From: Escherichia phage FFH2
Length of the DNA stretch: 64,000 bases
Direction: 5' to 3' (one strand)
Sequence record: KJ190158
This document shows, one piece after another, positions 1 through 9,216 of this stretch (positions are counted from its first letter, which is position 1; each line of letters starts with the position of its first letter). The notes under the pieces were generated by a model. It made no database searches. It was given only the letters and a program-made list of their open reading frames with translations, and was not told the DNA's origin. The position numbers were made by a program, and so were the translations under genes.

Positions 1-1983
1 TTATTTGATGTTATTCTTTGTATCGATCAGTTCACGGTATTCAATCATAGCAGGAGTGTCCCAATATTTCAAGCCTACATGCTTCAAAAGTGGGTATTTC
101 TTTTCCAATCTTGCAATATAGGCCTTCCCGCATTTAACTCGGTTGGCGATTAAGATTTTGGCACGATGATTTAGCTCACTATGCTTCCACGCGGTGTTAC
201 CTTCCCACTTGTGGAAATGTGGCCGATAATTTCCAAAATCTTGCATGGGAATAATTTTCCCTAATTGTCTATACAGGCTGTCATATGAAGTTTCATTTGC
301 TGCGCGAGTCAGTAAGAATTTCCAAGCATCCTCTTTCAACAAATGTTCCACACTCTTCTCTGTAACATACTGGCAATCAGGATCAGTCCAAAGCAGACGA
401 GATTCTGATACCAGGTACAGATCTTCCCCTTCAGGAATCTGGAGTGCCGCACGCACACGGTCATAATTTTGCTGGTAGATGTTACTCAGCTGTCCCAGCC
501 AACAACTTCCACGTTGGATATCACCCTCATAAGGAATGCAGTGCTTAATCTTCTTGAACTCTGCCTTAGTAATACGCTCACGACGGAAGTAACCATCCTT
601 CTCAAGTTTTTTAACCCAATACCCTGGCTCATAGTGAGTTTTTGTTTCACCTTTCTTTACAGGACGGCGAGGGAGCTCTGATAACAATTTGACCGTATCT
701 GCAAAGAACGGGTGGTGTGCCGCTTCTTTAAACTCTTCCACCCGATCCGTGTTACGGCAATAGAAAACGTTGCGTCCGGTGATCTCGCTTAAGTAGTTAC
801 ACTTATTTCGGTTATATTTGCCGTCTCCGTCGTTAAATACAAGGTATACACCTCGTAAGAACTCCGACTTTCCGTAACGAGCATAGCCTATGCGGCCTTT
901 ATTTAAGCCGCCAGCGAAAATTTCACAATCGCCTAAGTCGCCAAGCCCTGTTTCTTCCCAACGGTTCCACATAAAGTTTTTGCCGAAGATGTGTCCGAAC
1001 ACTCCACTGTTCTTCATCATCTCACGTGCTTCTGAGGATGTTTTTGCTGTCTCCAATTCCGCAACAACTTCTGCCCCACGAAGACGTATACCTTCTTTGA
1101 CAAAGGCCTCCAGGCGATCCTGGAATCCACCATCGTCGTGCCCCTCTATGGTCCATTCGCGCCCAGGGTTAATATTGCAATCCCCGATAGGGATCTCTAC
1201 ACAGATTGCAGGGTAGTCTGTCAATGTTTCCAGAAACTTAGAGCGGTAAGGTTGGTGTCCCATCACCACACGGCTCTCATCAGAGCTGGTATAACCTTTC
1301 AGGATAGTCATTTTCCAACCATCTTTCTCGTAATGATACTGTGCCTCAACCTTGTCACCTTCTAACATCTTACTGGTCATGGGATCGGTGACGATGAACG
1401 GAAACTTCGCATAGCGTAAGCACGATGCAATAGCAGTGCGATATTTCAGGACATGCTCTTTCTTAACATGGAACTGAACTTTTACCCCGTTGTGCTCTTC
1501 AGTCTTCCGCTCGCGGATCTTGGTAACGTTTGGGATACCCTGATCCAAGAACAATAGATATGTGCTTTCAATACCATTGTGCACACTGATAACATCGAAA
1601 GTGTCCACCATGCTGAACGGAGCCTTTGAACCAACACCTTTATTGCCAACCAGAGCGTTGCTGTTGCGCTTGGTTGACTCACCGAGGTTCATGAAAGTGT
1701 TGCGGACCATCTCTTCTGACATGCCCAATCCAACGTCCTGCACAAAGAAGTATGGTTCAAGGTCTGTAGGAGAGTGAATAATGATCGGCACATCACCCCG
1801 TCCAGACTCAACATGAGAGTCCACAGCATTGAAGATTGGTTCACGGCAGCTTGCCAGCACCTTATCTTCGTAAATCCCTTTAATGATTAGCCCAAAAGTC
1901 TCTTTGTTAAGAGAAATTGAGCCCCTGGTGACCTCCATATTTCCGGTTAGCACTGCTTTAGTTTCATTACTGTTTACAATCAT
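1..1983 (-). CDS. GHKL-superfamily (Bergerat-fold) ATPase domain protein, 660 aa, with ~400-aa uncharacterized C-terminal region
   Basis: Complete ORF (stop at 1-3). N-terminal motifs in GHKL order: EPIFNAVDS (ExxxNAxD), QDVGLGMS (DxGxG), GNKGVGSKA (Gly loop). Start overlaps stop of gene 1980-2480 by 4 nt (ATGA). Confidence 0.6.
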   Translation of the reverse strand: MIVNSNETKAVLTGNMEVTRGSISLNKETFGLIIKGIYEDKVLASCREPIFNAVDSHVESGRGDVPIIIHSPTDLEPYFFVQDVGLGMSEEMVRNTFMNLGESTKRNSNALVGNKGVGSKAPFSMVDTFDVISVHNGIESTYLLFLDQGIPNVTKIRERKTEEHNGVKVQFHVKKEHVLKYRTAIASCLRYAKFPFIVTDPMTSKMLEGDKVEAQYHYEKDGWKMTILKGYTSSDESRVVMGHQPYRSKFLETLTDYPAICVEIPIGDCNINPGREWTIEGHDDGGFQDRLEAFVKEGIRLRGAEVVAELETAKTSSEAREMMKNSGVFGHIFGKNFMWNRWEETGLGDLGDCEIFAGGLNKGRIGYARYGKSEFLRGVYLVFNDGDGKYNRNKCNYLSEITGRNVFYCRNTDRVEEFKEAAHHPFFADTVKLLSELPRRPVKKGETKTHYEPGYWVKKLEKDGYFRRERITKAEFKKIKHCIPYEGDIQRGSCWLGQLSNIYQQNYDRVRAALQIPEGEDLYLVSESRLLWTDPDCQYVTEKSVEHLLKEDAWKFLLTRAANETSYDSLYRQLGKIIPMQDFGNYRPHFHKWEGNTAWKHSELNHRAKILIANRVKCGKAYIARLEKKYPLLKHVGLKYWDTPAMIEYRELIDTKNNIK

Positions 1984-2480
1984 TTATTGCGCTCCTTGTA
2001 GTAGATATGGCTCCCGAATTGAGCTGTCCTCTGCATCTTTTTTGCCCATTTCGGTCGTACTTTGGTTGTATGGTAGTGTGTTGCTCCACCTGTTATGTCC
2101 ATAGCCATGTATGCAACATGGTTGTTATTATAGACCTTTAGAAGCATCTTTGCAAGACTTTTAGCGTGATCCCATGAATCTTTTTCTGTCACCTTAAAAG
2201 TTTTGCCGTGGTTTGTCCACGAAAACTGGTTAGGTTGGTAGACAATCTTTCTTATGGTGTCTGGGTATTTGGGGTGAGATTTCCTGTTTAGGGTGGCAAA
2301 CCCAGATGCCAGCATACCCATCGTGCCATCCCCTCTAGCTTCCCTGTAGATATTGCATGCCAGAATGTTTTCCTTAGTATCTGAGGGCTTGCAAGTATGA
2401 TATACTTTTTGTTTTGGTGCTGCAACAACAGGCAGCGATAAAAATGCGCTCAAAATAATAGCAAAGATCTTAATTTTCAC
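1980..2480 (-). CDS. Secreted cell-wall hydrolase, SleB/CwlJ-like; candidate endolysin
   Basis: N-terminal signal-peptide-like segment MKIKIFAIILSAFLSLPVVAAP; motif NIYREARGDG resembles the SleB-family signature; GGAG RBS 7 nt upstream of ATG. Confidence 0.5.
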   Translation of the reverse strand: MKIKIFAIILSAFLSLPVVAAPKQKVYHTCKPSDTKENILACNIYREARGDGTMGMLASGFATLNRKSHPKYPDTIRKIVYQPNQFSWTNHGKTFKVTEKDSWDHAKSLAKMLLKVYNNNHVAYMAMDITGGATHYHTTKVRPKWAKKMQRTAQFGSHIYYKERNK

Positions 2481-2490
2481 AATAACTCCA

Positions 2491-2516
2491 AATAGAAAAT
2501 CCCCGCCGAAGCGGGG
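2491..2516 (-). terminator. UUCG-tetraloop hairpin (CCCCGC-UUCG-GCGGGG) with U-tract, minus strand
   Basis: Between gene 2530-2910 and the hydrolase gene; hairpin is followed directly by the hydrolase RBS, so it may act as attenuator or processing site. Confidence 0.5.
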
Positions 2517-2529
2517 GAGGTCTTAGAAA

Positions 2530-2910
2530 TTAATCGTAGTGTGCCAAAATCTCTCCATCGTTGCAAGTTCCCTCTACAAAGTTATGAAGATTCATGCACT
2601 CATCTTGATAGAAGAATTTACCGCTTTTCAGCCGTAAGCCAAACAACTCCGCATCTCCACGATGGCAAGCCTCTACAAGTTCATAGATTTCATACGGCAA
2701 CTCTCCGTCGTCATGGAAGAACCCAGCCTTATCGTTGACATAGATGAAGAAATAATCACTGCTATCGCAAGCGTCCAATATTTTAAACCAGATTTCATCT
2801 ACATCTTTTTCTCGGATATCGATCACGCAAGTGGAGCTGCATTCGTACTCCTTCTCCGGCTCCTCGGTCAATACCACCCGGTAATTTCCCCGCTTACCTA
2901 CTTTAGCCAT
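2530..2910 (-). CDS. Hypothetical protein (126 aa)
   Basis: ORF in operon context, followed by UUCG-loop hairpin; no recognisable motif. Confidence 0.45.
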   Translation of the reverse strand: MAKVGKRGNYRVVLTEEPEKEYECSSTCVIDIREKDVDEIWFKILDACDSSDYFFIYVNDKAGFFHDDGELPYEIYELVEACHRGDAELFGLRLKSGKFFYQDECMNLHNFVEGTCNDGEILAHYD

Positions 2911-2919
2911 ACAACCCCC

Positions 2920-4104
2920 TTAAGCTTTAGCTAAAATGGCGCTAAACTCTTCACCAAACTCTTTTACAATCTTCATCAGGTTTGGGTACGCTTTGATCAG
3001 TTGAGCAACGATCTTGTCACGCCCTTTACCGATAAGCAAGGCATTTCCTAAGGCATTAGGTTTCATCATCGCCATAAAGACTGAGAATACAAAATCTCGG
3101 TTCTCGTCCTTGAAGTTTTCCCAAAGGAAATCGAGGAAGTTTGCCACGCAGCTGACAAGATCTTCATCTGAGATACTTGCATTTTCCATCATATTACGAA
3201 TAGCGATACAACCTTCAGATCCAAGAATCCACAAGATGTCTGGCTGTTTAGGACCTACGTATTCTTTGCAACCCCCTGCCATAATCCGACCGATTTCCGG
3301 TAAGTTGCGTTTCTTGGTGTGGTAGGTCCAGATCTCTACCGCTGCAGTGTGACCAATAGCACCTTGCAGAAGAACACGGGCCATAGCGTCAGAAATAATA
3401 CCGCTGTCAAAATCGTGCAAGATGTCAGATGCAGCAACCCAAGATCGTGGTGTGGCAAAAGATGGACAATTAATCTCAGCCATAGCCTCATAATTATCAA
3501 TAGCTGATGGAACTCTTTTCAGATACCCAATCACAGAGGAGTGAACCCCGTTGAGGAATGCGTAGTCCTCAATAAACACCTCTGCATTGCTTGTAACCTC
3601 TACAATGATAAAGCGGTTAGCCAGAGGGGCTTCGAGCGCCGAAAGAACCGCACCATCTGTAGAACGGTTACCAGCAGCCACAAAAACAGAACCTTTAGGG
3701 AATGCATAGGTACCGCACTTGTGGTCAAGCATAATTTGCATTGCAACCTTTTGCAGGTAGTTATCTGCATGAGTGAGCTCATCCAGAAAGATAATTCCGC
3801 TCCAGTTCGGATCTGCAGGCCAAAATTCTGGAATTGCAAACACTGTACGTGTAGTTCCATCAGCTTCTACAGGGATAGGTAGCCCAGATAAGTCGGCAGG
3901 ATCTTTATCTGACAGTCGCACGTCAACAAGGTTGTCATCTCGCTCACCGAACATATTATCAGCGATCTGCTTCATCACCTGGCTTTTACCCACACCCATT
4001 GGTCCCAAAATTAGGACAGATCGGCTATGACGTTGGGCAAACTGAATAATAGCTGGCAACTCACGGACAGTGATTTGACCACTTTCGAATACGTTTCTTG
4101 ACAT
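2920..4104 (-). CDS. MoxR/CbbQ-like AAA+ ATPase (AAA_5-type)
   Basis: Walker A GPMGVGKS and Walker B IIFLDEL in the translation; size and layout typical of MoxR-family ATPases. Confidence 0.7.
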   Translation of the reverse strand: MSRNVFESGQITVRELPAIIQFAQRHSRSVLILGPMGVGKSQVMKQIADNMFGERDDNLVDVRLSDKDPADLSGLPIPVEADGTTRTVFAIPEFWPADPNWSGIIFLDELTHADNYLQKVAMQIMLDHKCGTYAFPKGSVFVAAGNRSTDGAVLSALEAPLANRFIIVEVTSNAEVFIEDYAFLNGVHSSVIGYLKRVPSAIDNYEAMAEINCPSFATPRSWVAASDILHDFDSGIISDAMARVLLQGAIGHTAAVEIWTYHTKKRNLPEIGRIMAGGCKEYVGPKQPDILWILGSEGCIAIRNMMENASISDEDLVSCVANFLDFLWENFKDENRDFVFSVFMAMMKPNALGNALLIGKGRDKIVAQLIKAYPNLMKIVKEFGEEFSAILAKA

Positions 4105-4373
4105 TAGTAAAAGTCCTCTACTTGTGTGTAAGTGTTTTCAAAGTTTTCCAAAACAGATATCACATCGAATCTGTCAATATCATACGTGACTCTCCAGTTG
4201 TACGCAACCCTTTCTGCTGTTGCCTCTTCTGGCGCTAGTCGTCTGCTGGCATAAAAGAGTGTTGGAGTACACTTTCTTGCTTGCCCTCTAACTTTCCCAT
4301 AATAATATCTGTGAATATCTTTGTCAAAATTTAACTCTTTTTCTGCACGAAGTTCATATTGCTGGTACAACAT
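4104..4373 (-). CDS. Hypothetical protein (89 aa)
   Basis: ORF tightly packed in minus-strand operon. Confidence 0.4.
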   Translation of the reverse strand: MLYQQYELRAEKELNFDKDIHRYYYGKVRGQARKCTPTLFYASRRLAPEEATAERVAYNWRVTYDIDRFDVISVLENFENTYTQVEDFY

Positions 4374-4417
4374 CTCTACTACTCCTTAAGCAGCATCCTT
4401 GCCGCCATTCCTGCCCA

Positions 4418-4798
4418 CTAAAATGCAGTCCGAATCCAGACAAGGTTCTTATCTGCCCAATCATAGAGGCAAGTCATTGCACTATTGAATTGCTCACACG
4501 GAGGATAATCTTCTTCCATCTGGCGCATAGCAGAGCCTTGTGGGTAAAGCTCCCGTGCTGCAAACCACGCATCGTAGTCATCCACGGTATCGAAGTAGTA
4601 TACAACATCCTCCAACTCAGGATCGAACTTTGAACTATCAGGATCCAGTTGTTCAGGGAACTTGGAGCGTAACTTGCCAGCCACAATACTTGCCAACTCG
4701 CTAACATGCTTATTGTCCCACTCCACTAGCTTCCCGTCTTCAGTGATGCGTCCTAACCACTGATCATGAAGGTCAACTGTTGTCTTCCACTGAGCCAT
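4418..4798 (-). CDS. Hypothetical protein (126 aa)
   Basis: ORF in operon context. Confidence 0.45.
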   Translation of the reverse strand: MAQWKTTVDLHDQWLGRITEDGKLVEWDNKHVSELASIVAGKLRSKFPEQLDPDSSKFDPELEDVVYYFDTVDDYDAWFAARELYPQGSAMRQMEEDYPPCEQFNSAMTCLYDWADKNLVWIRTAF

Positions 4799-4800
4799 TA

Positions 4801-5058
4801 TCAGTCCACCTCTTCTTCTCGTTGTAGTTCAAGATACCCGTAGGTCTGGACATCTTGAAGGGTGTGGAACTCCCCCTCTGCCGCTAAGGCACGAACAACT
4901 TGGCACAAAACCTTATGAGGAACTTCATCCAAACCTAGATTCAGTGCAGGAAACACCTTATCTAAGTCAACAAAATAAACGAACTGTAGCTCACCAGCTT
5001 CAAAAGGTGTATCTTCAATAAACATCTTCTCGGCATTAGTCAAGATCTGCACTTTCAT
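4801..5058 (-). CDS. Hypothetical acidic protein (85 aa)
   Basis: ORF in operon; 1-nt overlap with upstream gene. Confidence 0.4.
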   Translation of the reverse strand: MKVQILTNAEKMFIEDTPFEAGELQFVYFVDLDKVFPALNLGLDEVPHKVLCQVVRALAAEGEFHTLQDVQTYGYLELQREEEVD

Positions 5059-5414
5059 TATTCTACCTCCTCTTCTTTTTCTTCGGCATTAGTTTCATGG
5101 CTACTCCACTCGGGAGTTTCCACCTCGATAGTAAACTCACGCACTACACGGTAATTGCCCATGAAGCGCTCTACTTCGTCAAGGCTTATGGAGAGGCCAT
5201 TGGCAACCAGGTCTGCAGCACCCTCTTCTACCAGGTAGTCCAGATTGGCCTCCAGAGCCTCAGGTTCAAACCCTGTCAATGCAATCAGATAACCTTCCCC
5301 TTCATCAGGGAGGACAATACAGCCCAATTGATTTTCTTTAAAAAGGCAGTGACCATCATTATTGATTGGGTGTTCATTGCAGTAAATAGCTGCACGATAA
5401 GTAACTTTAGACAT
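5058..5414 (-). CDS. Hypothetical protein; start revised to ATG at 5414 (MSKVTYRA...)
   Basis: AAGGAG RBS 9 nt upstream of ATG at 5412-5414; track start at 5435 lies inside the upstream gene end. First 29 nt shared with an internal site of the plus-strand ORF at 7253-7281. Confidence 0.5.
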   Translation of the reverse strand: MSKVTYRAAIYCNEHPINNDGHCLFKENQLGCIVLPDEGEGYLIALTGFEPEALEANLDYLVEEGAADLVANGLSISLDEVERFMGNYRVVREFTIEVETPEWSSHETNAEEKEEEVE

Positions 5415-5427
5415 CGGTAAGGTCTCC

Positions 5428-5706
5428 TTAGGCAATTGTCATTTTACATTCTTGAAATTTTAACACAAGACGGTGATTGTGTCTAGTGTCTAAAAAGATT
5501 TTTTCAACCATCAGGCACACGGTATAACCGTCCATCTTGTTGACAACAAAATCTCCAGGATGAGGGAGGATGTCTCCCGGATTGGGGAAACATAGTTCAC
5601 TCAGAAAGGCATCGTCAGTGGTGGACTTAATAGATTTCCACACACTGTCTGCCTGAACATGTTCACCGACGTAATATACATTACCACATGCCTTCATCAT
5701 AGTCAA
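5428..5706 (-). CDS. Hypothetical protein (92 aa)
   Basis: ORF in operon, 4-nt overlap with upstream gene. Confidence 0.4.
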   Translation of the reverse strand: MTMMKACGNVYYVGEHVQADSVWKSIKSTTDDAFLSELCFPNPGDILPHPGDFVVNKMDGYTVCLMVEKIFLDTRHNHRLVLKFQECKMTIA

Positions 5707-6602
5707 ACCCTCGCATAAATTAAACTTGTATCAGTATACTTCTTTAATGGGTAAATATCCTGTCCATAGATGCAATCATTAAACACCTCATCTACCCAAA
5801 GGCTACACTTATATCCCATCATTTCTAAAACACCCATCTCTTCTTCGGTAAACTTATCACCGCTCTTGCAAGATGTCAATACCTCATTCTGAACTCTTGC
5901 CACCTCGAAGCGGTTATTGGCAATATCGCTATTGGCGATCAAATACTCACCTAAAGGGTGTGCGGCATTAAAGATGCACAGTGGACGGCTGACGTAATAG
6001 TCTCCGGGTGTATAAAAATTGTTGAGGTCTTTCACTAGAACATTCTTATCAGTCACTTCATTTATAACATCATGCATATCGCACATCTTTATATGTTTGA
6101 GGATTCCATCCCCCATCACAAAATAAAAACTTGCTGAGACACTTTCGGCATAGATCTTACTAGATCCGTTGTAGTTGTATTCTACTCGGATGCTAACGGG
6201 GGTTTTTCCTGTCGCGTTAGCCATCATCCAAAGAAATGGCAGCTCATACTTCTCCTCTGAGGAAACAAAAGGTGAGGTAGCCAGAGATCGAAAACCTCCA
6301 GAGAAGTTGAAAGTTACAGAACCGCTCCGGCGGTATGATACCGCGTATTCTACTTTTATATCGACGTACCCATTGGAATAGGTGTGTCCTTCATTATCTA
6401 AATATGTCCACTTATCAGACCCAGATACCAATCTACGCTCAATAACCTTCATCACTACAGGAATTAGTGGGTTGGTACAAACCGCTTTTGAAGTAGCTTT
6501 ATCATCTAAAGCCTCGTAAATTGCAGAAAGGATGTCCCCAGCTGAAAGATTGGTTGTTATGTCCTGTTTCCACCGCGTACTAAAACTGTTAAGATTTGCC
6601 AT
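5703..6602 (-). CDS. Hypothetical protein (299 aa), first gene of minus-strand early arm
   Basis: AGGAG RBS about 10 nt upstream of ATG; sigma70-like promoter immediately upstream. Confidence 0.55.
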   Translation of the reverse strand: MANLNSFSTRWKQDITTNLSAGDILSAIYEALDDKATSKAVCTNPLIPVVMKVIERRLVSGSDKWTYLDNEGHTYSNGYVDIKVEYAVSYRRSGSVTFNFSGGFRSLATSPFVSSEEKYELPFLWMMANATGKTPVSIRVEYNYNGSSKIYAESVSASFYFVMGDGILKHIKMCDMHDVINEVTDKNVLVKDLNNFYTPGDYYVSRPLCIFNAAHPLGEYLIANSDIANNRFEVARVQNEVLTSCKSGDKFTEEEMGVLEMMGYKCSLWVDEVFNDCIYGQDIYPLKKYTDTSLIYARV

Positions 6603-6642
6603 AAGTAAGTGCTCCTATGTTAGTTTTCTTTCGAATGGGTGC

Positions 6643-6671
6643 ACTATATTGTGGAGTTAGAGTAAAGTCAA
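6643..6671 (-). promoter_or_regulatory. Sigma70-like promoter for minus-strand early arm (-35 TTGACT, 17-nt spacer, -10 TATAGT)
   Basis: Read on minus strand; about 40-nt leader with AGGAG before ATG 6602. Confidence 0.5.
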
Positions 6672-6678
6672 CACGTTT

Positions 6679-7722
6679 TTGATGTTGACATCTGTTGAGA
6701 CAATTGATACGATTTCTTCACTTACAGAGCACGAGAGACGACTCATGAATCTTGAAAAATATTATACACCAGAAGAGTTAGAGCGCTTGCTCAAAAAATA
6801 TAGACGCAAACAGAATAACGCACGGAAACGAGATATAGAGTTCGACCTGTCATGGGAAGAATACCTCCTATTTGGTAAAAAACTTTTAGGAGATGGAGTA
6901 TGCGACTATACCCTTATACCTTTTGACATGCACACAGATGAAAACGGGCTGGGAAATCCTTTCTACCCATCTCTGGAGCGGATAGATGATGAAGGTCCTT
7001 ATGCGGTTGATAACTGTTGTGTGGTGGGATTGAGATGCAACTCTCTAAAGGACTGTCTGGTAGATAAAAAGACTGCAGTCTTGATTAAAGACGAAACTGA
7101 TCGAAAAATTGTCCAGCAGATGATGCTCCACCTGAGCGAAGAGCGTATGGAGAAATTGAAAGGTGATTATACTTTTGAAGATTTCATCTTGCAATATGGA
7201 ACGGAAGAGGATAAACTAGCACTCTTTGACGAAGAAGAGGAGGAAGATATGCTACCGATGTCTAAAGTTACTTATCGTGCACCCAAGAAGCACATTTCCG
7301 ACATTGTAAACGAGCCTATCACAGAAGAGATTGAAGAAATGACGCAACAGGTGCATGAAGAGGAAAAAGAGACTCAGGAGGTCGAAGAGGAGCTTACAGA
7401 AGAGGTTCCTGCACTACCTGATGATGTTGAGATTGCCAAAGCTTACACTTTCTATTGTCAAACGTTCTACGATGTAGGTATGAAAGTTGATCTGTCGTTC
7501 AGCCAATTTAAGAGTTCGTATATTCGCAAATGCTGTGCTTTAACTGGTGAACGTCTTGGAGCTGGACTTAAACCTCTGTTGGTGACCGACTGGAATAAAG
7601 GTTTCACTAAAGGAAACTTTATGGTAGTATCTCCAATTATGGAGAAAGCTATGACAGATCTTATGAAGACCACCCGCATGACAATGACCGAGTTGGCAGG
7701 TATTTTCAAACACGTTAAATAA
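6679..7722 (+). CDS. Hypothetical protein with Cys-containing N-terminal module and acidic linker; real start possibly ATG 6745
   Basis: Track start is TTG inside the -35 element of the predicted plus promoter; first ATG downstream of promoter is 6745. Segment ...IDDEGPYAVDNCCVVGLRCN... weakly recalls a His-Me-finger nuclease core (unverified). Internal in-frame MSKVTYRA shared with gene 5058-5414. Confidence 0.45.
   Translation: MMLTSVETIDTISSLTEHERRLMNLEKYYTPEELERLLKKYRRKQNNARKRDIEFDLSWEEYLLFGKKLLGDGVCDYTLIPFDMHTDENGLGNPFYPSLERIDDEGPYAVDNCCVVGLRCNSLKDCLVDKKTAVLIKDETDRKIVQQMMLHLSEERMEKLKGDYTFEDFILQYGTEEDKLALFDEEEEEDMLPMSKVTYRAPKKHISDIVNEPITEEIEEMTQQVHEEEKETQEVEEELTEEVPALPDDVEIAKAYTFYCQTFYDVGMKVDLSFSQFKSSYIRKCCALTGERLGAGLKPLLVTDWNKGFTKGNFMVVSPIMEKAMTDLMKTTRMTMTELAGIFKHVK
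6685..6713 (+). promoter_or_regulatory. Sigma70-like promoter for plus-strand early arm (-35 TTGACA, 17-nt spacer, -10 TACGAT)
   Basis: -35 elements of the two divergent promoters form inverted repeat GTCAACA-N9-TGTTGAC at 6667-6689. Confidence 0.45.
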
Positions 7723-7727
7723 TAACA

Positions 7728-7742
7728 GGGGCCAATGGCCCC
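7728..7742 (+). terminator. GC hairpin GGGGCC-AAT-GGCCCC, weak terminator or attenuator
   Basis: Between plus-strand genes; U-tract poor; overlaps upstream ATG of vWA ORF. Confidence 0.3.
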
Positions 7743-9216
7743 TTCTGGAGTTTTAATGGATAGCAGAAGTTCAGAAATCATTGCCTCGCAGAAAGATGAT
7801 GCCCTGAGAATGTTGCAGGCTGCACGTATGTATCTCCTTGAAAAGCTGCCGTTCTATGGCACACTACTGTCAGGGTTGCAGTTCGTAGAAAACCACACAT
7901 GGTGCTCCACCATGGCAACCGACCATAAACGCATCTATTACAGTCCTGAGTTCATTATGGGATTGGCTGATGAACGCAAGGCTATTCTTAAGGCTTCTCT
8001 AACTGACGAGCAGTTTGAGATGGCTGAAGTTTTCTATTCCCCAAAATCTGTGAAAGAGGTGGCCTTCCTTCTGTCACATGAGGTGGGGCATATTATCTGT
8101 GATCACCTAGTCCGTGGTAAAAGCTTTGAGCCGGAACTGTTCAATATTGCTTGTGATCACGTTATCAACACAGGCCTTGTGGTTGACTTTAGCAAACCTC
8201 CTTGTGTTTTCTTCCCGAAGGGGAAAAGCACTACGTTCGTGAAAGGTAAGCCTTTTGGATTCTTAGCCAGCTGCTACTGCGACATGAAGTTTCATGGATG
8301 GATTGCTGAGAACGTCTATGCAGTTCTTGATAAGCAAAGAGATCAGAATAACGGTAAAAGTAAGAGCGGTAAAGGTGAGAACTCTCAAGGAGATAAGCGA
8401 CAAACCGATGATCACATGAGTGGTAACGGTGGCACCAGTGATGATCTTGGAAAGGCTATGGGGTATGATCAGCCACAACCTGTAATCAGTCAATCTGATA
8501 AAGATCAGGCCATGCAGGACTCTGGTGACATGCTGGAGGCAGCAATGCAAGCTTCCGGAGGCCGTTGCCCTGAGGCGGTGCGTGAGTTTGTCAAGAACAG
8601 AGGTAAGCCTGTAATTAATTATATAGACATCATCAAGCAACGCATGTTGTCTAAACGAAAGGCTGAACTGACCTACAGAAAACCTGGTCGCCGATCTGGG
8701 TCTTTGACCAGCACAATGCGAAAAGTTGGGGCTATAAACAAGAACCAGCACGTTATTGTTCCTGGTCGTAATCCGGAAAACACCATAGATATTGTGGTAG
8801 CTTTAGACGTTTCTGGCTCGATCTCTCAAAGAACTTTAAAGAAAATGTTCAATGAAATCACCGGATTGTGCAATCTGTATAAAGAGTTTAAGGTTACAAT
8901 GTTCTGTTGGTCAACTGAAGTCGGAGAGGTTAAAGTATACACTCGCGGCAACATAGACGAGATGATCAATTATGAGGTCCACTCAACATGGGGCACAACA
9001 GCTGCTTGCGTGTTCGAGTATCTGGATGCTAACATACCGAATGCAAAAGATGTCATCGTCCTGACCGACCTATACTTTGAGCATAACTTTGAACAAAAGG
9101 CTGTTGACAACAAGTGGAAAAAGTACGATACTCTATGGGTTCTCACCGAAGGGTATAATAAAAATTATATTCCGAGCTTTGGGAAAACTGTGGAATTAAT
9201 CGAGTACGCTAAGTAA
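7735..9216 (+). CDS. vWA-domain protein with N-terminal HExxH metallopeptidase-like motif; likely start ATG 7756
   Basis: HEVGHIICDH (HExxH) in N-terminal half; vWA MIDAS motif VVALDVSGS with downstream STWGTT and VIVLTDL. ATG 7735 lies inside a GC hairpin; ATG 7756 has GGAG 7 nt upstream. Confidence 0.65.
   Translation: MAPSGVLMDSRSSEIIASQKDDALRMLQAARMYLLEKLPFYGTLLSGLQFVENHTWCSTMATDHKRIYYSPEFIMGLADERKAILKASLTDEQFEMAEVFYSPKSVKEVAFLLSHEVGHIICDHLVRGKSFEPELFNIACDHVINTGLVVDFSKPPCVFFPKGKSTTFVKGKPFGFLASCYCDMKFHGWIAENVYAVLDKQRDQNNGKSKSGKGENSQGDKRQTDDHMSGNGGTSDDLGKAMGYDQPQPVISQSDKDQAMQDSGDMLEAAMQASGGRCPEAVREFVKNRGKPVINYIDIIKQRMLSKRKAELTYRKPGRRSGSLTSTMRKVGAINKNQHVIVPGRNPENTIDIVVALDVSGSISQRTLKKMFNEITGLCNLYKEFKVTMFCWSTEVGEVKVYTRGNIDEMINYEVHSTWGTTAACVFEYLDANIPNAKDVIVLTDLYFEHNFEQKAVDNKWKKYDTLWVLTEGYNKNYIPSFGKTVELIEYAK

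Follow-up and report, generated by a model that had tools for sequence, protein, structure and literature searches.

Layout of the locus

The window is a 64,000-nucleotide stretch of Escherichia phage FFH2 (sequence record KJ190158), and the locus discussed here fills its first 9,216 positions. Two arms of genes diverge from a sigma-70-like promoter pair (6643..6713). The leftward promoter-like site (6671-6643, minus strand) reads TTGACT-17-TATAGT and the rightward one (6685-6713, plus strand) reads TTGACA-17-TACGAT with an extended TG. Each agrees with the consensus at 10/12 positions, and the deposited record of phage Gotham has PhagePromoter predictions at exactly these two places, which bears out the pair as first described. 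These sigma-70-like matches are what suggest that the locus might be expressed early.

The leftward arm (all minus strand) begins with a 299-aa ORF (5703..6602; PHROG 12338, unknown function). Relatives label it an alpha 1-3 fucosyltransferase, but this is unsupported here, with no match in Pfam or NCBIfam. Four small acidic ORFs follow (5428-5700, 5058-5414, 4801-5058 and 4418-4798), which match only PHROGs of unknown function. Next is an 89-aa ORF (4104..4373; PHROG 13164) whose stop overlaps the start of a MoxR ATPase gene (2920..4104) by 1 nt. Some records also call the 89-aa ORF a MoxR ATPase, although the ATPase motif is absent and the label looks like annotation spill-over. A strong sigma-70-like site (4327-4299; 11/12 positions) lies inside this ORF. 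Beyond the ATPase gene are a 126-aa acidic ORF (2530..2910; PHROG 12370, unknown function; no match in a Pfam search), a gene for a SleB-like hydrolase (1980..2480) and a 660-aa reading frame (1..1983). A terminator-like GC hairpin with a T-run (2516-2501, minus strand; CCCCGCTTCGGCGGGG then ATTTTCTATT) comes after the 126-aa ORF and before the SleB-like gene, parting the MoxR sub-block from the latter, and an ARNold terminator is annotated independently at the same site in Gotham.

The rightward arm (plus strand) opens with a 325-aa protein (6745..7722). Its start is placed at 6745 because the TTG at 6679 falls within the promoter. It matches PHROG 3118 (E 6.5e-113) and has three parts: an N-terminal region that resembles Srd or endonuclease VII, an acidic linker and a C-terminal domain without assignment. 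Weaker N-terminal matches are to PHROG 4592 ("decoy of host sigma70") and PHROG 1400 ("Srd"), and a Pfam search returned no match. Records label this protein "anti-sigma factor" or "HNH endonuclease". The arm continues with a vWA-zincin gene (7756..9216). The two arms also share a perfect 29-nt inverted repeat, for which 0 chance matches are expected and which is kept in three relatives. Its first arm (5391..5419, minus strand) spans the point where the 118-aa ORF has its start codon, and its second (7253..7281, plus strand) is inside the Srd-like ORF.

The lineage is well populated. The region is matched by 124 phage records, 110 of which cover at least 80% of it at 90-99% identity. The window is a Vequintavirus (rV5-like) genome to which published phages are 98.6% identical, and magaca, CarlMeissner and Gotham agree with it in gene order and annotation. 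The functional data were obtained in a transposon screen on the near-identical relative Bas54 (phage MaxBurger; preprint 10.1101/2025.11.20.689424, 2025), whose gene lengths and order are the same and whose vWA-zincin protein is 98.8% identical to that of the window. Every gene of the locus is dispensable for Bas54 on E. coli K-12 (10.1101/2025.11.20.689424). This includes the orthologs of the four small acidic ORFs and of the 126-aa ORF, the last of which is also unaffected on a clinical host.

rIIA and the SleB-like hydrolase

The gene rIIA is among the oldest known phage genes, and the 660-aa protein is rIIA. It matches the rIIA family over its full length (PHROG 612, E 6.5e-125) and Pfam HATPase_c_3 above the cut-off (E 1.2e-8; 35.6 bits against 25 bits). 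The GHKL ATP-binding motifs noticed at the outset are real: E48-x3-N52-x2-D55, D83-x-G-x-G87 and G113-x2-G116-x-G118 do not vary in an alignment with T4 rIIA among its members. The N-terminal ~290 residues comprise the GHKL ATPase and a transducer-like second domain, and the C-terminal ~370 are rIIA-specific. The predicted fold resembles Hsp90, ParE, MORC and MutL; a sequence search found no solved structure of any rIIA. However, identity to the GHL ATPases (Hsp90, GyrB/ParE, MutL, MORC) is only 9-16%, their Toprim, endonuclease or client-binding domain is absent from rIIA, and residues ~300-660 are without counterpart among the top structural matches. The protein is therefore not novel, since a GHKL domain with a variable C-terminus has been described for rIIA before (PMC7824862).

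The likeness to T4 extends to gene order. The window opens on the rIIA stop codon and so cuts off rIIB, which sits 10 nt after rIIA in relatives; records that open at the same base carry rIIB at their far end. The likeness has limits. T4 rIIA is 725 aa long and 28% identical, pairwise alignment is limited to the N-terminal ~200 residues, and here a gene for a predicted secreted hydrolase lies upstream. rIIA and rIIB form one operon, and by homology with T4 their products may shield the infected cell against abortive infection that acts through membrane depolarisation, for example by RexAB (10.1101/2025.11.20.689424; PMC10312443). As in T4, both genes are dispensable on K-12 in Bas54, and neither has a phenotype when hosts are compared.

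The neighbouring gene encodes a SleB/CwlJ-type cell-wall hydrolase of 166 aa with a GTG start. The assignment is supported by Pfam Hydrolase_2 (E 2.1e-19), by PHROG 938 endolysin (E 1.7e-27) and by a retained EARG motif. Residues 3-21, after two lysines, form the only strongly hydrophobic segment encoded at the locus (Kyte-Doolittle 2.29) and would fit a Sec signal peptide, so the description of a signal-peptide-bearing SleB-like hydrolase holds, with export predicted from sequence. With the Bacillus SleB/CwlJ proteins it shares the catalytic domain, whose Pfam match exceeds the cut-off, and the EARG motif with the catalytic glutamate. Even so, its score with the SleB equivalog model is 48 bits where 236.5 would be needed, it is short, without the N-terminal peptidoglycan-binding domain, and it has a signal-peptide-like N-terminus and is encoded by a phage of a Gram-negative host. 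Its ortholog bas54_0065 tolerates insertions at 32/36 TA sites and is non-essential, whereas the true endolysin, bas54_0202, has zero insertion counts in the resampling table. The hydrolase is thus an accessory cell-wall enzyme and not the lysis endolysin, and would be exported to act in the periplasm.

Are rIIA and this hydrolase a coupled, envelope-acting pair, and do they belong with MoxR and vWA to one undescribed host-takeover system? Some observations point that way. The SleB-like stop does overlap the rIIA start (ATGA), all four genes lie near a single divergent promoter region, the SleB-rIIA neighbourhood is kept in Klebsiella phage K54_rec2 at 52% and 38% protein identity, and in N4 the MoxR-vWA pair and rIIA are within about 4.5 kb. 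However, the overlap, although present as described, is nothing special here: in a 21-kb relative locus about 30 junctions join genes on the same strand, and about 8 of them overlap. In addition, rIIA has its own ribosome-binding site (AAGGAG, 8 nt upstream). The overlap reflects the ordinary compact gene packing of the lineage. Even in K54_rec2 the two genes are parted by a small ORF and about 190 nt. Vequintavirus and the Klebsiella K54-type phage are alone in keeping them as neighbours; there is no rIIA within 3.5 kb of the SleB homologs of Certrevirus, phi92-like and T5-like phages, and no such hydrolase upstream of T4 and N4 rIIA. The terminator-like hairpin stands between the MoxR block and SleB-rIIA, and in the clinical host MoxR insertions are lost while SleB, rIIA and rIIB insertions are unaffected. 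Nothing observed binds rIIA, SleB and MoxR-vWA together, and a single system is very unlikely.

What, then, became of the preliminary description? Its sequence features were all found at or near the positions given, and its gene calls and domain assignments are correct. Its headline, an undescribed system, fails on two counts, largely those that the description itself named as refuting it: the 660-aa protein belongs to a named HMM family, and more than 100 related genomes annotate the genes of the locus one by one. With a probability of about 0.8, the locus is an accessory-gene region of Vequintavirus, arranged around divergent promoters, that holds several separate and already named modules.

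A conserved MoxR-vWA pair

One of these modules does consist of partners. The 394-aa MoxR-family AAA+ ATPase carries Walker A (GPMGVGKS at residue 34) and Walker B (IIFLDE at residue 104) and matches PHROG 1297 ATPase (E 1.5e-110). Its own Pfam matches are below cut-off; homologs at E ~1e-43 carry AAA_3/AAA_5/bpMoxR, and the family profile also matches midasin. The AF2 model (pLDDT 84.8) has NorQ (E 5.8e-8) and CbbQ (E 1e-7) as its top Foldseek matches, so that the protein is a MoxR ATPase of the NorQ/CbbQ-like type. The 486-aa vWA-zincin protein joins an N-terminal HExxH metallopeptidase domain (DUF2201_N, PF13203, E 3.5e-28) to a C-terminal vWA domain with a complete MIDAS (DUF2201, PF09967, E 3.6e-11), both passing the cut-off. 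The motifs are HEVGH at residue 108 and DVSGS at residue 351, and H108, E109, H112, H117, D351-x-S-G-S355, T414 and D438 are invariant in eight divergent phage homologs. Only the start differs from the first description (7735-9216): ATG 7756, with a GGAG site upstream, is probably used, and 7735 falls within a hairpin.

That the two are natural partners across the divergent promoter is corroborated by other genomes. The genes are adjacent in CR3, N4 (gp24/gp25), PBECO4 and metagenomic phage contigs, and are neighbours with an HNH insert between them in phiTE. Altogether, five phage lineages show the adjacency, and so does one bacterial contig or chromosome of 1.25 Mb. Across 50,697 phage records, MoxR and vWA counts by genus are near-identical (Escherichia 214/213, Pseudomonas 108/104, Pectobacterium 26/26, Cronobacter 17/17, Achromobacter 17/17). 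The pair in phages was noted already by Iyer et al. 2021 (PMC7824862), and N4-like phages keep it as a conserved pair among their core genes (PMC4193335). N4 gp24 (ATPase) and gp25 (vWFA protein) are homologous to the window's proteins (MoxR 26%, vWA-zincin 22% identity), and the N4 and jumbo-phage pairs have the same domain architecture and invariant HExxH and MIDAS residues. The difference is one of arrangement. In N4, PBECO4 and CR3 the genes are adjacent on one strand, whereas here some 3.6 kb lies between them and each is on a different strand, a split common to Vequintavirus and the K54-type phage. MoxR and vWA-zincin are thus a genuine conserved pair, divided here by a lineage-specific rearrangement.

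A mechanistic precedent for a MoxR ATPase working with a vWA partner is NorQD (PMC9976466; PMC13036017). In NorQ-NorD and CbbQ-CbbO, the best structural matches, the partner is also a MIDAS-bearing vWA protein. However, sequence identity to NorQ/CbbQ is no higher than 16-21%, a helical domain of ~130 residues is added at the C-terminus of the phage ATPase, and NorD and CbbO are without the zincin peptidase domain of the phage partner. The cellular targets are nitric-oxide reductase, for metal insertion (NorQ-NorD), and Rubisco, for activation (CbbQ-CbbO). The phage proteins would likewise pair as chaperone and cochaperone. By analogy, the phage vWA domain would dock on a MoxR hexamer, its MIDAS site would grip a target protein and ATP hydrolysis would remodel that target, which the fused zincin domain could additionally cleave.

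Counter-defence or another role?

The transposon data give the pair a context. The Bas54 MoxR ortholog is required to overcome the predicted defence system DS-28, and a phage from which MoxR was cleanly knocked out is sensitive to DS-28 when that system is cloned (10.1101/2025.11.20.689424). In the clinical-host comparison, MoxR insertions have a log2FC of -7.23 and vWA-zincin insertions one of -2.20 (adjusted p 0.009). The supplement gives this table twice, and the sheet bears the label CFE303 although 311 is the sample in its command line. Polar effects are ruled out because the genes flanked by MoxR and the helicase are not affected. However, vWA-zincin is depleted far less than MoxR, and several unrelated Bas54 genes are depleted to a similar extent, near -2 log2, so a share of the vWA-zincin protein in the DS-28 phenotype is tentative.

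A quite different role was put forward by Iyer et al., who proposed virion assembly for the jumbo-phage pair by analogy with the tail-development MoxR/vWA of Acidianus two-tailed virus (PMC7824862). On that reading the window's proteins would be an assembly chaperone and a maturation protease. The PBECO4 pair adjoins virion structural genes, and the core status in N4-like phages could be read likewise (PMC4193335). However, on K-12 about 94% of the TA sites in both Bas54 genes accept insertions, and therefore infective virions form without them. Moreover, MoxR is required only on particular hosts, a need traced to a cloned defence system, and the pair is found among accessory genes driven by sigma-70-type promoters, outside the structural module. 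Virion assembly is thus very unlikely here.

Perhaps MoxR counters DS-28 alone, or with another protein such as the product of bas54_0140, while in Vequintavirus the vWA-zincin protein has taken up a different task. This would explain the different transcription units, which count against a joint role, and their conservation in Vequintavirus and the K54-type phage. It would also fit the very unequal depletions, and bas54_0140 rather than the vWA gene is the validated second anti-DS-28 gene (10.1101/2025.11.20.689424). Nevertheless, the HExxH and MIDAS residues remain invariant, MoxR and vWA co-occur almost perfectly across phage genera, characterised MoxR ATPases act through a vWA partner (PMC9976466; PMC13036017) and the vWA-zincin gene is itself significantly depleted in the same comparison. 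A MoxR that acts without vWA-zincin is therefore possible, if rather doubtful.

For the MoxR-vWA pair, then, counter-defence is the most likely role, and we infer both that the vWA-zincin protein takes part against DS-28 and that the pair acts on a target. The counter-defence role guessed at in the preliminary description thus survives in part, and for this module alone. The Vequintavirus pair is dispensable on K-12 in Bas54, yet its core status in N4-like phages hints at a role more basic than counter-defence.

Identification of the 660-aa Protein and its Relatives

It is clear that the 660-aa ATPase encoded at 1..1983 (minus strand) is rIIA. The preliminary description had treated it as an unrecognised protein at the heart of an undescribed system, an idea that is not borne out: the protein matches PHROG 612 ("RIIA lysis inhibitor") from end to end, with residues 1-658 aligned to profile positions 1-724 of 725 (E 6.5e-125). 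Its reported GHKL ATPase motifs are genuine, with HATPase_c_3 above the Pfam cut-off and all three GHKL boxes present. The N-terminal 198 residues align with T4 rIIA at 28% identity (E 4e-21), and the ATP-binding positions E48, N52, D55, D83, G85, G87, G113, G116, and G118 do not vary across an alignment with T4 rIIA among its members. A GHKL domain followed by a variable C-terminus has been described for rIIA before (PMC7824862). A sequence search for a solved structure of any rIIA found none.

Where the record begins matters here. rIIB (PHROG 609, E 3e-60) lies 10 nt downstream of rIIA in relatives at 98.6% identity, and the window ends at the rIIA stop. The records of LL12, Murica, CM1, and I29 share exactly this starting point, the rIIA stop codon, and rIIB is the very last gene of records that begin there. 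Therefore, the edge removed the partner that identifies rIIA. The lesson is a general one: where a record starts at an arbitrary base, an operon partner that would identify a gene at once can be lost from view.

The PHROG 609 "RIIB" profile itself (1055 positions) is composite. Its N-terminal part matches the rIIA GHKL region (residues 26-183, E 1e-23) and its C-terminal part matches rIIB. Since one profile matches both proteins, some phages may encode fused rIIA-rIIB proteins.

rIIA acts with rIIB to counter RexAB (10.1101/2025.11.20.689424, PMC10312443), and rIIB triggers bacterial gasdermin systems (PMC10312443). By homology, rIIA with rIIB would guard this phage's infected cell against membrane-depolarising abortive-infection systems. 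In a transposon screen of the relative Bas54, neither rIIA nor rIIB had a phenotype on the single clinical host reported (10.1101/2025.11.20.689424).

The locus as a whole is well represented in databases. A search with the first 9.3 kb gave 124 matching phage records; in 110 of these the match spans at least 80% of the query, with 90-99% identity. Nearly all belong to rV5-like Escherichia phages (genus Vequintavirus, about 136 kb), and magaca is the best match (98.6%). Gene order and lengths are identical in magaca, CarlMeissner (Bas48), and Gotham, and the proteins are mostly 97-100% identical. The genes, their families and the MoxR-vWA pairing discussed below have all been described, and more than 100 near-identical genomes carry annotations of the locus. 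The preliminary finding was largely a false alarm, and the region most likely consists of independent modules.

A separate curiosity is a set of 16 unannotated "Campylobacter phage" records (including MG065635, MG065654, MG065655, MG065659, and MG065666) with Campylobacter jejuni as the stated host. They are 97-100% identical to the locus, and their host or name assignment looks doubtful.

Transcription Signals and Gene Starts

Every sequence feature in the preliminary description (ORFs, motifs, overlap, and promoter-like sites) is present in the window. The divergent promoter-like sites at 6643-6713 each match 10 of 12 consensus positions and coincide with PhagePromoter predictions deposited for Gotham. 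The first gene of the right arm starts at 6745 rather than at the TTG at 6679, because the latter falls within the promoter. The vWA gene is where it was said to be, although its start is most likely 7756 and not 7735. A terminator-like hairpin (2501-2516) separates the ATPase block from the hydrolase gene. A literature search for transcriptomes or expression timing of rV5-like phages returned unrelated viruses only.

Three further elements were noticed. The strongest sigma-70-like match of the region (TTGACA-17-TATTAT, 11/12) lies at 4299-4327 on the minus strand, within the 89-aa ORF, some 195 nt ahead of the MoxR start, and could serve the ATPase gene as an internal promoter. A hairpin at 7727-7743, with a 7-bp GC-rich stem (AGGGGCC AAT GGCCCCT), separates the 325-aa gene from the vWA-zincin gene. 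It has a terminator score on the minus strand only; on the plus strand the GGAG site of the vWA gene comes next. Finally, there is a perfect 29-nt inverted repeat, TACCGATGTCTAAAGTTACTTATCGTGCA, with arms at 5391-5419 (minus) and 7253-7281 (plus) that both encode MSKVTYRA. One arm lies where the 118-aa ORF starts; the other is within the 325-aa Srd-like ORF, directly after its acidic linker. No such repeat is expected by chance (0 expected) and it is kept in three relatives. It may be the scar of a gene fusion, or else a regulatory element that both sites share.

The SleB-Like Hydrolase

The 166-aa ORF upstream of rIIA encodes a member of the Hydrolase_2 cell-wall hydrolase family, as had been suggested (Pfam E 2.1e-19), with the EARG motif kept. 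On sequence grounds it is SleB-like, not a SleB: the NCBIfam SleB equivalog TIGR02869 gives 48.3 bits, below the cut-off of 236.5, and only the Hydrolase_2 catalytic domain is held in common with the spore enzyme. Following two lysines, the N-terminus has the sole strongly hydrophobic stretch in the locus. The protein is predicted to be exported to the periplasm.

Could it be the lysis endolysin? This possibility was rejected. The Bas54 ortholog is non-essential, with 32 of 36 TA sites hit, whereas a separate gene annotated as endolysin, bas54_0202, has zero insertion counts (tables of 10.1101/2025.11.20.689424). The hydrolase is therefore accessory and is not the enzyme of lysis.

Another idea was that the hydrolase and rIIA are specially linked through an ATGA overlap. 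The overlap is there, with the hydrolase TGA overlapping the ATG of the 660-aa gene. However, overlapping stop/start junctions are common in this genome (approximately 8 of approximately 30 in a 21-kb relative locus) and rIIA has its own AAGGAG site, so the overlap is not evidence of a special functional link. The neighbourhood is kept in a Klebsiella phage (52% and 38% identity), with a small ORF between the two genes. Hydrolase homologs in one Certrevirus, one phi92-like, and one T5-like phage have no rIIA within 3.5 kb, and T4 and N4 rIIA have no such hydrolase neighbour. It is therefore concluded that gene packing particular to this lineage accounts for the coupling.

The MoxR ATPase and its Probable vWA-Zincin Partner

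The 394-aa ATPase encoded at 2920..4104 (minus strand) carries the Walker motifs attributed to it. GPMGVGKS at residue 34, IIFLDE at 104, and GNR at 145 are among the invariant alignment columns. Its own scores for the Pfam MoxR-type domains are below gathering level (AAA_5, 16.8 vs 22 bits; bpMoxR, 15 vs 27 bits), and therefore membership of the MoxR family rests on transitive homology and fold. Homologs at 33-36% identity (E ~1e-43) carry AAA_3, AAA_5, and bpMoxR, and the family profile matches midasin. A search of solved structures by sequence gave only generic P-loop matches to Clp ATPases. The AF2 model (pLDDT 84.8) has NorQ and CbbQ as its best solved Foldseek matches (E 5.8e-8 to 1e-7); 17 of the top 20 matches are one or the other, and CHU_0153 and cso-CbbQ are also listed. 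By transitive homology and predicted fold, then, this is a MoxR ATPase. NorQ and CbbQ are MoxR ATPases that act through a vWA partner (PMC9976466, PMC13036017).

The candidate partner is the protein encoded across the promoter at 7756-9216 (plus strand). It matches DUF2201_N, an HExxH peptidase domain, at 99.4 bits (Pfam cut-off 23.2) and the vWA-like DUF2201 at 43.7 bits (cut-off 26.4), in line with its earlier reading as a vWA protein with an HExxH motif. Residues H108, E109, H112, H117, D351, S353, S355, T414, and D438 are invariant in eight sequences, down to 24% identity with the window protein. Sequence searches matched it to no solved structure.

In the window the two genes are 3.6 kb apart on opposite strands. 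Their proposed partnership is likely, in that the pair is adjacent elsewhere: in Cronobacter phage CR3, N4 (gp24/gp25), and jumbo phage PBECO4, and in three metagenomic phage-like contigs and one 1.25-Mb bacterial contig. In phiTE they are interrupted by an HNH gene. Genus counts for the two genes are almost equal across the phage collection. The split arrangement is common to a Klebsiella K54-type phage, and is therefore a derived feature of this branch. A single-protein scan for bacterial relatives of the vWA-zincin protein found none; one bacterial example came from the protein database. The pair has been noted in jumbo phages, with a proposed role in virion assembly (Iyer et al., 2021; PMC7824862), and is one of 14 core gene families of N4-like phages (PMC4193335).

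Some database labels in this region do not agree with the domain content. PHROGs 1314 and 3118 and several RefSeq/GenBank records call the vWA-zincin (7756-9216) and Srd-like (6745-7722) proteins "HNH endonuclease", and homologs such as N4 gp25 (4953-6095 of the N4 locus, L006) and PBECO4 gp009 (5980-7404 of the PBECO4 locus, L007) are affected. Pfam finds no HNH domain in either protein; the vWA-zincin consists of DUF2201_N plus DUF2201. The label looks like a propagated mis-annotation. No better supported are the names given to the 299-aa ORF ("alpha 1-3 fucosyltransferase") and to the 89-aa ORF ("MoxR ATPase"). Scans of the locus proteins gave nothing meaningful with PADLOC defence-protein models and only sub-threshold matches with NCBIfam.

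A Link to a Predicted Defence System

The sole functional lead for the pair is a 2025 preprint reporting saturated transposon libraries of Bas54 (10.1101/2025.11.20.689424), which connects the ATPase with evasion of a single predicted defence system. These data come from a preprint on a relative and not from the window phage itself. The relative, Bas54 (phage MaxBurger), is a close one: its vWA-zincin protein is 98.8% identical to that of the window, and the genes of the locus agree in length and order.

On K-12, no gene in the interval bas54_0055 to bas54_0068 is essential (10.1101/2025.11.20.689424). On a uropathogenic isolate, MoxR-gene insertions vanished (log2FC -7.23), and those in the vWA-zincin gene fell approximately 4.6-fold (log2FC -2.20, adjusted p 0.009), a level that several unrelated genes also approach (near -2). 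Insertions in the 126-aa ORF, SleB, rIIA, and rIIB genes were unaffected (10.1101/2025.11.20.689424). Which host the numbers describe is in doubt: in Extended Data Table 8 the sheet is named "resampling_K-12_vs_CFE303" but the command line names sample 311, and the same numbers are in a second sheet. Perhaps the MoxR phenotype is simply a polar effect of the transposon? This was rejected: four genes separate MoxR from the helicase gene, and insertions in them are neutral. A clean MoxR knock-out is sensitive to a cloned two-gene predicted defence system, DS-28, and so is a knock-out of an unrelated small gene, bas54_0140 (10.1101/2025.11.20.689424).

The helicase gene that follows rIIB, bas54_0068, lies outside the window (3415-4785 of the relative locus L001). 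It is dispensable on K-12 and strongly depleted on the clinical host (log2FC -6.32), which makes it a second conditionally needed gene in the same operon. The text of the preprint does not discuss this depletion (10.1101/2025.11.20.689424).

How might the pair act? By comparison with NorQD and CbbQO, the vWA domain would dock on the MoxR ATPase hexamer (PMC9976466, PMC13036017). A target bound at the MIDAS site of that domain would be remodelled at the expense of ATP and so laid open to the fused zincin; a DS-28 component is one possible target, a signal that DS-28 senses another. On the boldest reading, the two proteins together would form an ATP-driven, MIDAS-targeted remodelling protease that seizes and cuts, or disassembles, a DS-28 component or a phage-made DS-28 trigger. 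This reading is tentative, with a probability of roughly three in ten. The gene identities are firm; the joint action of the pair, argued by analogy, and its target are not.

The residual interest of the locus is the mechanism of a widely conserved phage MoxR-vWA-peptidase pair. It is found in N4-like phages, Vequintavirinae, jumbo phages, and some bacteria, with strictly conserved metal-binding sites. If the reading is correct, the MoxR/vWA-zincin protease would represent a mechanistic class not seen before among phage anti-defence factors, and a function would be at hand for a gene pair whose conservation spans N4-like and jumbo phages and which bacteria carry too. The target of the pair, once worked out, would explain this conservation and extend the MoxR-vWA chaperone paradigm to virus-host conflict.
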